A program made the position numbers and the translations under genes. The notes under the pieces were generated by a model. It made no database searches and was not told the origin of the DNA. It saw only the letters and a program-made list of their open reading frames with translations. DNA of 39,722 nucleotides from Pseudomonadota bacterium. Lineage in GTDB: Bacteria > Pseudomonadota > Alphaproteobacteria > Paracaedibacterales > UBA11393. Of this stretch, positions 4,509 through 9,917 are shown in pieces; within the stretch, counting starts at the first letter, position 1; each line of letters opens with the position of its first letter. The stretch is from positions 1 to 39,722 of the forward strand of contig JAGOTX010000001.1 of the NCBI GenBank assembly GCA_018061565.1. Reading direction: 5' to 3'.

Positions 4509-5624
4509 ATGCGAACATATAAACTTATTGAGAATAATATAGTTCTCATCAATCAACCAAAACTCATAAAAGAGTTTGGGCGCTCTACGGCCCAATTCAT
4601 CTGCCATCTTCATTATTGGTTGGAAAAAGGTCAGGGAATTTTAAAAAATGATATCCGCTGGATTTATAACACCGCCAAAGAGTGGGGAGAACAAATCTGT
4701 TTAAGCAGTCGCCAAGTTGAGAGAATCATTTCAAAACTTCACAATCTTAATATTATAAAAGTTCAACATTTTGGAAAAACCAACAGAGTTAATTATATAA
4801 CTCTTAATTATGAAGGTTTAAACGCTCTTGTTAACGCATCTTATTTGGACAAAATGTCGGAGTCAGACCGACAAAATGTCGGAATGCATAATAAGAAAAC
4901 AAAGATTACAAACAAAGAAATTAATAAATCTGAGGAAAGGGGAGGGGCACTTCAAATTCTTCAAACAACGAATAATAAAAATTCTTCAAAACAAGTCGAA
5001 CAAGTCAAAAAAAATGATTTTAAAATTGAAAAAATTGATAGTAATTCTTCTGAACAACCCCAAAAAAATAATCTTCAAAATTCTAATAAACCTTTTAAAG
5101 CGAACACAGCCAAGGAAATGGTTGATCTATGGAATGATTATTTTCCAAAGTCAAAAACAGATCTTACGAAGGATTTAAGTAAAAATTTGGTGGCAGCTTT
5201 TAAACTTAAATTCAATTCTGATATGAATTTGTGGAAGCATTACTTAAAACGTATTGAATCAAGTTCCTATTTGACGGGAGAATCTTTCCAACTATCACTG
5301 TACTGGGCTTTAAAGTTTTTGACAATTGATAGGATAGGGAAGGGGGACTTTGGTGTAAAAGAGGTTGTTATTCCTCAAAAAACTGAAGATTTAAAAGCAA
5401 AAGTAGAAGCTCATATAAATTCTCTCAACGAATCCGATCGTTTAAAAGATGTTCGCTTTAAAATAGCAAAAGTAATAGGTGAGCAATCATATCTTTCTTG
5501 GTTTACACAAGTATCTTTCTTTGAAGATGATAAAGGTTTTCATCTTAAAGCCAATAAACCTTTTGTGTTAGATTATGTTCAAAACGTTTATGGATATTTG
5601 TTTAAAAATTCCCTTTCATCATAA
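4509..5624 (+). CDS. Putative plasmid replication initiator (N-terminal winged-helix-like region, low-complexity linker, C-terminal DnaA domain-I-like segment)
   Basis: 371 aa. LSSRQVERIISKLHNLNIIKV is HTH-like. The C-terminus SYLSWFTQVSFFEDDKGFHLKANKPFVLDYVQNVYGYLF resembles the DnaA N-terminal domain pattern (W..l....l.l..PN.F....i...Y). It follows the par and RHH genes. Confidence 0.5.
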   Translation: MRTYKLIENNIVLINQPKLIKEFGRSTAQFICHLHYWLEKGQGILKNDIRWIYNTAKEWGEQICLSSRQVERIISKLHNLNIIKVQHFGKTNRVNYITLNYEGLNALVNASYLDKMSESDRQNVGMHNKKTKITNKEINKSEERGGALQILQTTNNKNSSKQVEQVKKNDFKIEKIDSNSSEQPQKNNLQNSNKPFKANTAKEMVDLWNDYFPKSKTDLTKDLSKNLVAAFKLKFNSDMNLWKHYLKRIESSSYLTGESFQLSLYWALKFLTIDRIGKGDFGVKEVVIPQKTEDLKAKVEAHINSLNESDRLKDVRFKIAKVIGEQSYLSWFTQVSFFEDDKGFHLKANKPFVLDYVQNVYGYLFKNSLSS

Positions 5625-7855
5625 ATATCGTATGATAAATCTTCTAAAGATTCATTTGTAAAAGTTTTTTTAAATGTTTTTGTTAAATCTTTTGATAGAG
5701 CATTTTGTTTTGTTTTTTGCGTTGTATAAATGAGTCTAATAAGATTTCTTTTTCTTAAAATAGATTTATCCTGTACTTTAAGATGTTGTAAAATAGATAA
5801 ACCTTTCATATAACTTTTTTGGGCCATATCATATGATTTCTTTAATAAATTACAATCTCCATGAATCATATTAGAATAAGCTTGATCAATTGTTTTTTGA
5901 TCACTTCCATAAAATTCTTTATAGACACTAAGTGCTTTTTCTATAGATTGAAGACTACATTTATAGTCTAAGAGTTTAAGACTTGATTCAGCTTTATAAG
6001 TAAGAGCCTCTCCTAGTGTGTCGGATGGATTTCCTCCAAAATATTCCATACATTTTTCAACTGAAAGAGAGGATAATTCCAATCCTTTTTTATAATCTTT
6101 TATACGAATGTAAGCGAGAGCATTAAAATTATAGGTGTAAAATTTAATAGCAGTATCTGGGACATCTTTAAAATAGATAATTGCTTTTTCTGCAAAATAA
6201 ATAGCCTTTTTATAATCTTCTAAATCACAATATATCCATGTTGCAAAATAATAGGTAGGAATAATATTTTCAGAGCGAGAAAAATATTCAATATCTCTTA
6301 AAGATAAATTTATGTATTTTTTAGCTTCTTCAGCATTTAAAGAAAGGAGATAGTTTTGAGCTATCGAGTTTTGAAGACGAACACGCTCAAACTTTTCAGA
6401 GTTATCAAGAACACTTAATAGATGTATCATCTTTTTTAAAACATCTTTCGTTCTTTTTTCATTTGGTTGTCTAATTGATAAAACATCACCTGCTGAGGAG
6501 AAAAATCGACATTTTATACCTATATTTGTGATATTTTGTATGTTTTTAAATATTTTATCGATATATTTTAATGCACCTAAATGATCTCTTTTTATATAAA
6601 GGAGATAATCCAGCAGATAAATACAAATTGCCGTCGATTCTTTTATACTCTGGTTTAATAGTCCACAAAGCTTAGTGCATTTAAAGGCTGTTTCAATAAT
6701 AAATGGATTATTTTTTGAAAAAACGATCATATTATCTTTGTTTTCTTGAATGGTTTTTTGAATATCTGATGTGATATTTTTTAAAGCTTCATAGATTTTA
6801 TGGCTTGGTAATTCAATAAGTAAAGCATCTTGTAATAACTCATGGATAAAAAATTCACTCTTATCTACATCAAGATAAATAAAATGGTTGTTTATTAAAA
6901 ATGAAAGGATATCTTCAGTTTCTTCTTTTTGTAAATTCATGAGAGATGCAATTTTAAAGATATAAGATTTGTTTATTTGTTGATTTTTTAAAAGGCAAAA
7001 TATAGAAAGGATTTGAACAGAGGATGGTTTTTTCATAATCATTTTATTTAATGATATTCTAAGGGTTGAACGAACAGATACCTGCTGGTTTTTGTGATAA
7101 AAATCTTCTTCCCTTTGCCAAATTTGTTTTAAATTTTTTTTGTAGCGTTTCATATATTCTTTTATGTCAACAGCAGAATTCTGTTGTAAGAAATAGGCAG
7201 ATTGATTTATTAAAAGGGGATAATAATCAAGTGTTTTTGCTAGATCGTTAAGAACTTCTTCTCTCTCGTTTTGTAATATGCTTTTTAGAAAAGATACCGC
7301 CTCATTTTTTTCAAAAAAACTTACTGTAATTTGAGATTGTTTATGTGGATTTTCTCTTGTTGTAATGAGAAATTTTATGTTTTTTCTTTTTCTTGTGACA
7401 TTAAAGTTCTCATTTTTATTTTCATCTGAATCAATAATTAAAAGAGCTGTCATTTTTTCTTTTTTTAATATTTTATCAAGGTTGTTTATTGAGGAATCAG
7501 TATTGTTTGATTCTATAGTATTTATTTTTTTTATTTTACATATTTTTTTTTGAATATCTTCTATTTGTTGGTGTATGTCTTTTTGTGCATCAATTAACCA
7601 CACTATGTTGTAGGTTTTTTTGTTTTTTTGTCCATATTGTATTGCTATTTGGCTTTTTCCCATTCCACCAAATCCAGTCAGATAAACATATCCAAAACGA
7701 TCTATTTTTTCTTTGATGTTATTATTAAATCTTTTTCTTTCAATTTGATCATCATTATATCCATCACAGTTGGACAATTCAGAGCATATTAATATGTTAA
7801 CGAGAAAAAAGTAGAATATTAGAATCATCGAAAGTTTCTTCCTGAGTATTTTCAT
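5588..7855 (-). CDS. STAND NTPase: N-terminal membrane anchor/signal-like segment, NB-ARC domain, C-terminal TPR repeats
   Basis: 755 aa. NB-ARC landmarks: P-loop GFGGMGKSQIA, Walker B LLIIDSD, FLITTRE (RNBS-B-like) and LDYYPLLINQSAYFL (GLPL-like). The C-terminal ~350 aa contain repeated A..Y/F...A TPR-like 34-mers (e.g. YKKAIYFAEKAIIYF, YKKGLELSSLSVEKC, YDMAQKSYMKGLSIL). The N-terminus is hydrophobic: LSMILIFYFFLVNILICS. Confidence 0.75.
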   Translation of the reverse strand: MKILRKKLSMILIFYFFLVNILICSELSNCDGYNDDQIERKRFNNNIKEKIDRFGYVYLTGFGGMGKSQIAIQYGQKNKKTYNIVWLIDAQKDIHQQIEDIQKKICKIKKINTIESNNTDSSINNLDKILKKEKMTALLIIDSDENKNENFNVTRKRKNIKFLITTRENPHKQSQITVSFFEKNEAVSFLKSILQNEREEVLNDLAKTLDYYPLLINQSAYFLQQNSAVDIKEYMKRYKKNLKQIWQREEDFYHKNQQVSVRSTLRISLNKMIMKKPSSVQILSIFCLLKNQQINKSYIFKIASLMNLQKEETEDILSFLINNHFIYLDVDKSEFFIHELLQDALLIELPSHKIYEALKNITSDIQKTIQENKDNMIVFSKNNPFIIETAFKCTKLCGLLNQSIKESTAICIYLLDYLLYIKRDHLGALKYIDKIFKNIQNITNIGIKCRFFSSAGDVLSIRQPNEKRTKDVLKKMIHLLSVLDNSEKFERVRLQNSIAQNYLLSLNAEEAKKYINLSLRDIEYFSRSENIIPTYYFATWIYCDLEDYKKAIYFAEKAIIYFKDVPDTAIKFYTYNFNALAYIRIKDYKKGLELSSLSVEKCMEYFGGNPSDTLGEALTYKAESSLKLLDYKCSLQSIEKALSVYKEFYGSDQKTIDQAYSNMIHGDCNLLKKSYDMAQKSYMKGLSILQHLKVQDKSILRKRNLIRLIYTTQKTKQNALSKDLTKTFKKTFTNESLEDLSYDIYDEREFLNKYP

Positions 7856-9448: not shown

Positions 9449-9917
9449 TGAAGTACCAATCTATAAATTCATTATCAACAATACCATTTTTTTTCATAAG
9501 GCAATATTTATAAGCTTGCAGAATAAAATCAATAAAGTCATTTAGTTTTAGTTGTTGATTTTTTTGACATGCACATTCACAGGATTTGTGAACAATATCC
9601 AGAAAAAGTTCAGTTTTTAAGTCTGTTTTTTTTATAAAATCATCTGCGGCTGAGTTGGATTCTTCCAGTATCCTTCTTCCTACAAGCTCATCTAGTGAAC
9701 AATCGAAAACGTCAGCAATGGCTTTTAAGGTTTCCAGTGTTGGATTTTGAGAGTTACCTAGGAGAATTTTTCTAACAGACGTAGAAGAGAGTCCTGCCTT
9801 TCTTTCTAACTCAGAAGAATTCATTTGAAAATAATCTAACTTTTCTTGAATATTTTTTTTTAATTGAGAAATCAATGTTAAACAAACTCTGTCTATATAA
9901 TAAGACATTAATAACAT
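9432..9917 (-). CDS. XRE-family helix-turn-helix transcriptional regulator with an unknown C-terminal domain
   Basis: 161 aa. MNSSELERKAGLSSTSVRKILLGNSQNPTLETLKAIADVFDCSLDELVG is a classic Cro/C1 HTH. The gene is divergent from the first tra gene across a 124-bp intergenic region. An internal start at MNSS is possible. Confidence 0.8.
   Translation of the reverse strand: MLLMSYYIDRVCLTLISQLKKNIQEKLDYFQMNSSELERKAGLSSTSVRKILLGNSQNPTLETLKAIADVFDCSLDELVGRRILEESNSAADDFIKKTDLKTELFLDIVHKSCECACQKNQQLKLNDFIDFILQAYKYCLMKKNGIVDNEFIDWYFNETFK

Follow-up and report, generated by a model that had tools for sequence, protein, structure and literature searches.

A rare four-gene operon combining an XRE regulator, an acetyltransferase, a putative sensor pseudokinase and a STAND NTPase diverges from the tra genes of a conjugative plasmid family

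The four-gene block

We analyzed a 39,722-bp contig of a metagenome-assembled genome of a Pseudomonadota bacterium (JAGOTX010000001.1, locus tags KBD31_), a conjugative plasmid-like element that we refer to, at its full length, as the window. The subject is a block of four minus-strand genes between the replication gene rep (4509-5624) and an F-type transfer (tra) operon, from which the block diverges. A sequence-only reading of the window had proposed that these genes form one coupled operon and a candidate signalling or defence module. The four open reading frames (ORFs), their position and their orientation are as it described:

9432-9917 (-): gene 1, XRE/Cro-C1 regulator, 161 aa, starting at M1 or M4
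8963-9448 (-): gene 2, GNAT acetyltransferase, 161 aa (Pfam Acetyltransf_1/7/10, ~1e-11)
7797-8966 (-): gene 3, membrane protein and putative sensor pseudokinase, 389 aa
5588-7855 (-): gene 4, NB-ARC/TPR STAND NTPase, 755 aa

Neighbouring genes overlap, again as proposed, by 17 nt (9432-9448), by 4 nt (8963-8966) and, at 7797-7855, by 59 nt if STAND starts at M1 or 32 nt if it starts at M10, as NCBI annotates. The block was also said to be more AT-rich than the tra genes. Its GC content is indeed lower (0.22-0.28 versus 0.33-0.40), but the rep/par region and the region at 36-39 kb are similarly AT-rich, so this property is not unique to the block. Scans of 5300-10400 for sigma-70 promoters and terminators gave no excess over the shuffled expectation, and megablast of 5000-12000 against PLSDB gave no match.

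Conservation of the operon

In word-indexed searches, STAND had a single relative (37% identity), as did the 389-aa protein (71%). The two contigs concerned keep all four genes in the order of the window, divergent from TraL. We then built a profile from the 389-aa protein and its relative at 71% identity and ran it with HMMER, exhaustively, against 1.84 billion cluster representatives; only 10 relatives came back at E ≤ 1e-3. Eight of these are near full-length (389-435 aa), one is a 212-aa fragment, and one, of 974 aa, has short repeated matches only. No bona fide kinase was among them.

Contigs were looked up for seven of the HMMER relatives. The order XRE-GNAT-membrane protein-NB-ARC STAND was found in every relative whose contig is long enough (loci: window, L002, L001, the P0013 contig, L023/L024, L025, L026, L027, L028/L029 and L030), and recurs in about nine independent lineages. 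Across loci, the gene junctions are mostly overlaps or short gaps (overlaps of -4 to -59 nt). This kept order and spacing bears out the claim of a single coupled operon, and such strong synteny across lineages is the opposite of what was named as grounds for giving that claim up, namely that the four genes would never be syntenic elsewhere. Upstream, on the opposite strand, a gene in the pilin position is followed by traL, traE and traK in five of the six lineages with upstream context; the sixth has a Tn3-type transposase and an integrase. Tra-side neighbours match those of the window in L001, L002, L023/L024 and L028, and Rep adjoins the module in the window and L001.

Identity to the window across loci is 36-87% for TraL, 43-89% for XRE, 37-76% for GNAT, 31-79% for STAND and 25-71% for the membrane protein. 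At L023, for example, the values are 36% (TraL), 53% (XRE), 44% (GNAT), 39% (STAND) and 34% (membrane protein). The identities of the module proteins thus fall in step with those of the tra proteins, which argues that the module is as old as the plasmid backbone. Between the window and L002, ratios of nonsynonymous to synonymous divergence (dN/dS) for the four module genes are 0.07, 0.24, 0.27 and 0.15, indicative of purifying selection. An order shared by about nine lineages, together with dN/dS of 0.07-0.27, places the linkage of the four genes far beyond chance.

In the same comparison (5588-10041), dS of the module genes is 0.5-0.8, less than half that of the pilin-position gene and traL (~1.7). 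This could reflect codon or AT constraint, or the two plasmids could have exchanged the module more recently. In L028 (7392-8003) and L029 (5270-5881), a BioY biotin transporter gene directly follows the module, where the window has the convergent rep.

These data show that the block is a real, rare and conserved four-gene operon, and a stable part of the backbone of a small family of AT-rich F-type conjugative plasmids. It is so far undescribed. A literature search found no paper on the four-gene module, and PADLOC gave no match for STAND, the membrane protein or GNAT at E ≤ 1, in agreement with the statement that this is not a named system.

The putative sensor pseudokinase

The 389-aa product of gene 3 has the following parts:

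8904-8942 (-): first transmembrane segment (TM1) or signal anchor, aa 9-21
aa 22-179: periplasmic alpha/beta domain
8373-8429 (-): second transmembrane segment (TM2), aa 180-198
after TM2: long cytoplasmic DHp-like helix
7857-8246 (-): degenerate HATPase_c-like domain, aa 241-370
7800-7823 (-): conserved tail, SN[IV]xx[FL]x[RH]-COOH

For its structure we used an AlphaFold2 model built from nine window-type sequences, with a predicted local distance difference test score (pLDDT) of 79; a model from a mixed alignment of these with relatives of the type found on Megaira plasmids reached a pLDDT of 35 and was not used. The model begins with an N-terminal TM helix that runs into a long helix, followed by an alpha/beta domain at residues 69-173 whose predicted order of secondary structures looks PAS/PDC-like. 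TM2 extends as a cytoplasmic helix of ~40 residues, after which come a second, short helix and an alpha/beta sandwich at 241-370. Foldseek against PDB gave 205 matches at E ≤ 1e-3, and the 50 listed were all histidine kinases or kinase-like or kinase-derived proteins, including plant phytochrome kinase-related domains, WalK, YF1, DivL, RetS, ThkA, CusS and QseC (TMt 0.70 for the CA domain of ThkA). A profile of the ten-member family also had kinases as its best three PDB matches (best E 1.8e-3), in the register from the N-box to the C-terminal strand, while a profile of three window-type membrane proteins had no match in PDB. Model, fold search and profile agree on the architecture of a sensor kinase: a sensor, TM segments, DHp helices and a CA Bergerat domain.

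The residues that make such a protein a kinase are missing. At residues 196-262 no alignment column has a histidine in more than 3 of 10 sequences, leaving no conserved H-box. The N-box asparagine is absent, replaced by a hydrophobic residue in the alignment with ThkA, and there is no GxGLG-type G2 box; only the G1 aspartate (D326) is retained of the ATP-binding boxes. HisKA, HATPase_c and other Pfam models match no member of the family, and the 389-aa protein itself matches no Pfam, NCBIfam or PADLOC family. Tblastn of this protein against plasmids gave no match. The contigs of the module loci showed no receiver-domain gene, either within the module or among its neighbours. What the family does conserve is W284, PP300-301, D326, P329, GN362-363 and the terminal tail, which is disordered in the model. 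Given a kinase architecture with no conserved histidine, N-box asparagine or G2 box, we conclude that the protein is probably a sensor pseudokinase that signals through contacts. The earlier description of a GHKL-like sensor topology with no H-box was right, and profile searches did not turn the protein into an ordinary histidine kinase.

The STAND NTPase

Gene 4 encodes these elements:

7778-7855 (-): signal-peptide-like segment, aa 1-26
7652-7675 (-): Walker A, GFGGMGKS
7424-7444 (-): Walker B, LLIIDSD
7352-7372 (-): ITTR motif
7208-7225 (-): YPL, a GLPL-like motif
6839-6847 (-): IHE, an MHD-like motif
6179-6379 (-): TPR region, with TPR_12 at aa 493-559 (Pfam 1.8e-8)

Residues 48-315 match the NB-ARC part of NCBIfam model NF040586 (3e-29). 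PF00931 is on record for STAND orthologues; for the window protein itself, Pfam NB-ARC did not come up at E ≤ 1. The strings GFGGMGKS, LLIIDSD, FLITTRE and YYPLLINQSAYFL, on which the NB-ARC assignment had been based, are all present in the translation, and the NB-ARC motifs are conserved in seven orthologues, as befits an NB-ARC-type STAND protein. With Walker A and B, TTR, YPL and IHE all conserved, the nucleotide switch looks functional. PDB sequence search with the STAND profile gave no match, and an exact-sequence look-up of the 755-aa and 746-aa forms found no record. Degenerate-pattern scans of GTDB genomes and JGI metagenomes found generic NB-ARC proteins only (21-31% identity), none with the module.

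The absence of an N-terminal effector domain was also borne out. Only the signal-like segment and ~30 aa precede the P-loop, and no nuclease, protease, TIR or other effector domain was found at the N-terminus of the STAND orthologues. Yet the description of the protein as membrane-anchored is probably wrong. The N-termini of all seven window-type orthologues have a positive n-region and a hydrophobic run of 11-20 residues, and four show small-x-small (AXA-like) sites (ICA|T, AHA|N, TNA|H and INA|S). They closely resemble the signal peptides of TraW, TraU, TrbC, TraN and TraF of the same plasmid. Although the segment varies in sequence, its hydrophobicity is always kept and no internal Met precedes the P-loop, which argues that it is translated and under selection. 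A mis-called start was rejected on the same grounds, the hydrophobic segment being in frame in all orthologues, and a lipoprotein signal because no lipobox is common to them. Thus the N-terminus looks like a cleavable Sec signal peptide and not an anchor. By the positive-inside rule, both STAND and GNAT (whose N-terminus is described below) would be exported. Export would be odd, since the two need ATP and acetyl-CoA, but judging from these N-termini we strongly suspect it.

In two lineages STAND is interrupted. L023 (11184-13505) and L024 (4640-6961), two samples with 99.9% identical DNA, have a single in-frame TAA at codon 161, and in L025 (2584-4895) the frame shifts at the GLPL-like motif. 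For the L023 stop, an alternative genetic code was rejected, as the codon is TAA. Elsewhere in the module, and in the tra genes, these plasmids look intact. Degradation in relatives, which had been named as a reason to abandon the proposal, is therefore seen for STAND in these cases, but the reading frames are otherwise intact and the interruptions look like recent losses.

L008 (249-5080; JGI Ga0007797_1002205) encodes a distant NB-ARC/TPR protein of 817 aa that starts with a classic signal peptide and, in the next gene, a 778-aa protein with an OTU-like motif, DPDGNCFFHAI, recognized by eye. This suggests that signal-peptide STAND proteins are more widespread in AT-rich, probably host-associated bacteria.

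The GNAT acetyltransferase

Two features of gene 2 had been pointed out, a signal-like N-terminus and an intact acetyl-CoA motif, and both were found:

9386-9448 (-): signal-peptide-like N-terminus, aa 1-21
9143-9166 (-): acetyl-CoA motif A, RKKGIGKA, aa 95-102

Three Pfam GNAT models score above their cut-offs, establishing the GNAT fold, and motif A is conserved in nine orthologues. Most GNAT orthologues start with a signal-type N-terminus like that of STAND. The nearest solved structures by PDB sequence search are 1y9w, 2g3a and PaiA; no tRNA-acetylating toxin of the TacT/AtaT/KacT type was among the matches at E ≤ 0.01.

Plasmids of Legionella and Arsenophonus carry GNAT relatives with identities of 32-39%. 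On the Arsenophonus nasoniae plasmid paNv_CAN9 (L021, 6061-7179), a GNAT 34% identical to that of the window, and with no signal peptide, is divergent from traA-traL-traE and is followed by a regulator with PAS and a LuxR-type helix-turn-helix (HTH). This is another acetyltransferase/regulator pair heading an F-type tra operon.

The XRE regulator and the divergent promoter region

Gene 1 and its surroundings include:

9678-9839 (-): HTH, aa 27-80 (Pfam HTH_26 1.2e-10, HTH_3 3e-9)
9435-9635 (-): conserved C-terminal domain, ~65 aa
9918-10041: divergent intergenic region, 124 bp, from the XRE gene to the first tra-side gene
~9980-9994: palindrome TTTTGTCAACAAAA, containing a perfect TTGACA on the tra strand
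10006-10023: conserved 18-nt block TTATGATTTTAAGCTAGA
4478-4489 (+): second TTTGTCAACA copy, ~20 nt upstream of the rep ORF (4509-5624)
10042-10667 (+): start of the divergent F-type tra operon
10042-10344 (+): 100-aa membrane protein in the pilin position, labelled pilin by position alone
10374-10667 (+): TraL (Pfam 3.6e-20)

HTH_26 and HTH_3 both score above their cut-offs, confirming a regulator of the Cro/C1 type. NCBIfam models of the TrbA/RstR type matched weakly (TrbA, E 4e-5, far below its cut-off), and a PDB sequence search with XRE gave no match. Orthologues are present in all module loci, 43-89% identical to that of the window.

In a three-locus alignment of the divergent promoter region, the TTATGATTTTAAGCTAGA block is almost invariant, at loci where protein identities are only 25-53%, and the palindrome over TTGACA is conserved as well. 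The TTTGTCAACA core occurs both upstream of rep (4478-4489) and in the XRE/tra intergenic region (9981-9992), and an inverted repeat (I17) pairs 4465-4487 with 9983-10005 at 83% over 23 nt. We regard the TTTTGTCAACAAAA palindrome, the TTATGATTTTAAGCTAGA block and the TTTGTCAACA copy as candidate operators; the copy upstream of rep is possibly a shared operator or a -35 element. The TTTGTCAACAAA motif showed no window-wide enrichment at ≤2 mismatches. A further palindrome, TTTGTCGACAAA, lies inside the pilin-position gene (10107-10118).

Looser relatives on other plasmids

Tblastn against PLSDB gave best STAND matches of 18-28% identity, in the NB-ARC part, and best XRE matches of 27-35%, over the full length including the C-domain. 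The best matches of the two share plasmids and lie within ~2 kb of each other on three Megaira plasmids (pPCS201, pMegNEIS296 and the NDG2 plasmid) and on plasmid 1 of Rickettsiales bacterium Ac37b. In this Rickettsiales version, an NB-ARC/TPR gene comes after the gene for a 2-TM protein of 465-501 aa, and in some records the two overlap. The histidine-kinase-like/STAND pair converges on XRE in four of the five plasmids with an XRE homologue, and the Megaira and Ac37b XRE is divergent from an operon running from a DnaA-like rep gene into traL/E/K/B. Two of the Rickettsiales STANDs start with signal-like peptides. A profile of the 2-TM group matches the KinB ATPase domain (E 4e-5), and the group has an SNN[VI]I-type motif near the C-terminus, shared with the window-type family. 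Tblastn with the Megaira 2-TM protein matched only itself, and hhalign of a three-sequence window-type profile against the Rickettsiales group was insignificant.

On a Paracaedimonas plasmid, an XRE homologue is divergent from DnaA_N genes with no STAND nearby; a 769-aa ORF close to it proved not to be a STAND. A gene divergent from tra on Protochlamydia pPNK is not homologous to XRE. The context on the Megaira, Ac37b and Paracaedimonas plasmids suggests that XRE is a backbone regulator of a plasmid supergroup, often accompanied by kinase-like and STAND genes. The nearest relatives of XRE, STAND and TraC are all on plasmids of intracellular bacteria (Megaira, Ac37b, Paracaedimonas and Protochlamydia). 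In Rickettsiales amplified genetic elements (RAGE), HATPase-only and TPR genes are unexplained cargo, some with Sec signals (PMC10732058).

Other features of the window

The remaining landmarks of the plasmid are:

3031-3804: ParA
4509-5624: Rep with a DnaA_N-like C-terminus
13671-16163: TraC
27931-29799: coupling protein
31455-36218 (-): relaxase MobA/MobL-helicase-Toprim, 1587 aa

TraE, TraK, TraB, TraC and the remaining tra genes lie downstream of TraL. The relaxase joins MobA/MobL, an SF1 helicase and a C-terminal DUF6371/Toprim (primase-like) region; it resembles the Ti-type TraA found with Rickettsiales F-type systems. In the gap just upstream of its start (36218), a GC-rich palindrome beginning GCAAGTGCGCATAAGTGCGCACTTGAGC (36251-36286) is a candidate oriT/nic region. 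Upstream of parA, four direct repeats of ~48 nt at a spacing of ~150 bp (2298-2787; two 146-nt units, 77% identity) look like iterons or a centromere. A 223-aa cyclodipeptide synthase is encoded at 38868-39539 (-) (Pfam CDPS 1.3e-37). At 94-1572 (-), a 492-aa protein with no Pfam family match has a signal-like N-terminus and a highly repetitive, skewed Gly/Asn-rich region with a GC content of 0.41 and 17 copies of a 9-nt-periodic repeat.

Interpretation

We favour, with a probability of roughly 0.45, the reading that the operon is a sensory-regulatory module of the plasmid backbone, with XRE as its output on the divergent tra promoter. This fits best with the fixed head-to-head position beside tra, the co-divergence with the tra proteins, the XRE homologues that face rep or tra on other plasmids, and the sensor-shaped partner. 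Most likely, then, the module gates plasmid transfer on sensed conditions rather than fighting phages. Of the two roles first suggested, gating of conjugation is thus favoured by the tra-side position and the co-divergence, and Avs-like defence gained nothing.

In such a module, XRE would bind the divergent promoter region (9918-10041), perhaps together with the rep promoter, and would set expression of its own operon and of that starting with the pilin-position gene and traL. Because the membrane protein cannot carry out phosphotransfer, it would signal by protein-protein contact; through its CA-like surface and C-terminal tail it might hold or release the C-terminal domain of XRE, or another partner. 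STAND may serve as a nucleotide-driven switch whose TPR domain binds a cue or a partner, and GNAT may modify a component or a small-molecule signal. The parts could be arranged in two ways. In one, the cytoplasmic domains interact, the pseudokinase tail docking in the TPR for example, and STAND must stay inside. In the other, STAND and GNAT are outside and signal via the periplasmic domain of the pseudokinase to XRE. What the data show directly is which genes are present, how far they and their order are conserved, the fold, the state of the motifs and the signal-like N-termini; the DNA target, the direction of regulation, the partner contacts and the compartment of STAND and GNAT are all points that we infer.

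Several observations weigh against a role in gating transfer. Palindromes are no more numerous window-wide than expected by chance, so the proposed operators are putative. STAND appears dispensable, at least in the short term, given its interruption in L023/L024 and L025 with tra intact. If exported, STAND and GNAT could not touch the cytoplasmic XRE, and the membrane protein would be needed as a relay. The position next to tra can also suit accumulation of accessory genes. As for the Rickettsiales relatives, the homology of the membrane proteins is marginal (hhalign with ten window-type sequences, E 6e-4, probability 29%), and that version differs in gene orientation and has no GNAT, which is specific to the window-type family.

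An alternative that we consider unlikely, though worth weighing, is that the module is cargo for interaction with a host. GNAT and STAND would be Sec-exported, and perhaps sent onward, by a host-associated bacterium, with targets in the host or in a periplasm into which ATP and acetyl-CoA pass from the host; XRE and the membrane protein would regulate or assist. Signal-like N-termini are found on seven window-type STANDs, two Rickettsiales relatives and most GNATs, and both enzymes need cytosolic cofactors, suggesting a compartment other than the periplasm of a free-living cell. The nearest XRE, STAND and TraC relatives on plasmids of intracellular bacteria, the L008 signal-peptide NB-ARC/TPR gene adjoining one with a visually OTU-like motif, and the TPR and HATPase-only cargo of RAGE, some of it with Sec signals (PMC10732058), are all consistent with this. 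Yet cargo is expected to be mobile, whereas position, order and coupling to XRE and the sensor are fixed here and co-diverge with tra, and no protein other than GNAT has an effector-type domain.

Somewhat less probable is STAND defence of the Avs/NLR type against phages or plasmids, in which the TPR domain would recognize an invader protein, NB-ARC would oligomerize, and the effector would be the hydrophobic N-terminal helix, the membrane protein or GNAT. Defence proteins of the STAND/TPR class are known, and effectors can consist of a single TM helix. The intact NB-ARC motifs and TPR sensor and the AT-richness of the block accord with defence, as does a weak capH-like PADLOC match of XRE (1.9e-6), a type of regulator found beside defence operons. 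But the other three proteins match no PADLOC model, the ~30 aa between the signal-like segment and the P-loop leave no effector domain, and N-in signal-type N-termini would export the ATPase. Moreover, the family is very rare (10 membrane-protein representatives in 1.84 billion), and its fixed backbone location and co-divergence with tra are unlike the turnover of islands.

We are more doubtful of a variant in which an exported STAND senses a cue from the host or a recipient and the pseudokinase relays it inward to XRE, and so to transfer. STAND would then be an extracytoplasmic NLR-like sensor, acting with GNAT either in a periplasm to which the host supplies ATP and acetyl-CoA or further out.

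A toxin-antitoxin pair of XRE and GNAT, with GNAT acetylating charged tRNA and genes 3 and 4 as unrelated passengers, is improbable. An antitoxin-like HTH gene does precede a GNAT of ~160 aa with a 17-nt overlap, on a plasmid and beside rep and par. However, the structural matches of GNAT (1y9w, 2g3a and PaiA) include no such toxin, its N-terminus is hydrophobic and signal-like, the four genes stay together where identities to the window drop to 25-53%, and XRE homologues occur with no GNAT at all on Rickettsiales plasmids. Finally, an ordinary two-component histidine kinase with its response regulator elsewhere and unrelated neighbours would account for the kinase-like topology and fold, but we give it next to no credence in view of the lost histidine, N-box asparagine and G2 box, the lack of HisKA/HATPase_c Pfam matches, the absence of a bona fide kinase from the exhaustive search, and the absence of a receiver-domain gene from the module loci.

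How plasmids of uncultured and intracellular bacteria regulate their conjugation has hardly been studied, and here is a complete candidate control module, delimited by comparison across loci. Under one XRE it brings together a histidine-kinase scaffold that has lost its catalysis, a STAND switch of the NLR type and an acetyltransferase, which have not been seen before to work together. If the signal peptides are functional, these would be, to our knowledge, the first extracytoplasmic STAND/NB-ARC ATPases, which bears on how NLR-like switches are deployed. The module also suggests what the kinase-like and TPR genes of Rickettsiales plasmids and RAGE elements, so far unexplained, might do.

Comparison with known systems

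DivL, RetS and the phytochrome kinase-related domain resemble the 389-aa protein in that the DHp and CA folds are kept, catalytic residues are lost, and signalling is by contact. They rank among its best Foldseek matches. The 389-aa protein differs from them in showing no family membership by sequence, in its 2-TM periplasmic-sensor topology, in its conserved tail, and in that a STAND gene always comes after it. TacAT, AtaRT and KacAT pair a GNAT toxin with an antitoxin of the ribbon-helix-helix type, whereas the partner here is an XRE protein.

For STAND, the best-scoring curated model is that of the FxSxx-COOH TPR protein (NF040586), through the NB-ARC part. Membership in an FxSxx-COOH system was rejected, the score being 102 against a cut-off of 300, and neither the module nor the genes immediately around it showed an Fxs-type partner. 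Avs1-5 and bNACHT share the STAND NTPase core and a C-terminal repeat sensor; the module differs from them in having no effector domain, no PADLOC match, a fixed backbone position, and obligatory XRE, GNAT and pseudokinase partners. MalT and AfsR are STAND NTPases able to act as signal-integrating regulators. Like the window STAND, MalT, AfsR/SARP-type proteins and GutR combine an NB-ARC/AAA-type switch with a TPR-like sensor, for regulation and not for killing. Yet MalT, AfsR and GutR are cytoplasmic and carry their own DNA-binding domain, whereas in the window XRE is a separate protein and STAND has a signal-peptide-like N-terminus.

The Rickettsiales trio has a 2-TM protein with a degenerate HATPase_c, an NB-ARC/TPR gene and a homologous XRE facing rep or tra, as in the window. 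There the pair converges on XRE, GNAT is missing, and the proteins are 18-35% identical to those of the window, with marginal homology of the membrane proteins. All genes of the trio are annotated as hypothetical, with no reported function.

The closest working analogy to the module is conjugation control on pLS20 of Bacillus subtilis. Rap is a TPR protein, and the pLS20 repressor gene is divergent from the conjugation operon. Transfer of this plasmid is controlled by an Xre-type repressor and by a Rap-family anti-repressor, itself responsive to an intercellular signalling peptide, that relieves the repression (PMC3814332). Rco/Rap/Phr thus resembles what we propose for the window, where the XRE gene is head-to-head with the conjugation operon: an Xre-type regulator, a TPR partner and an exported component time the expression of transfer genes. 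Unlike STAND, Rap is a TPR-only RRNPP protein with no NTPase, and pLS20 has neither a pseudokinase nor GNAT. It is a Gram-positive plasmid with a different type IV secretion system, so the likeness is one of functional analogy and not of homology. Set beside these systems, the module is best read as STAND-based signalling coupled to an XRE regulator of conjugation.

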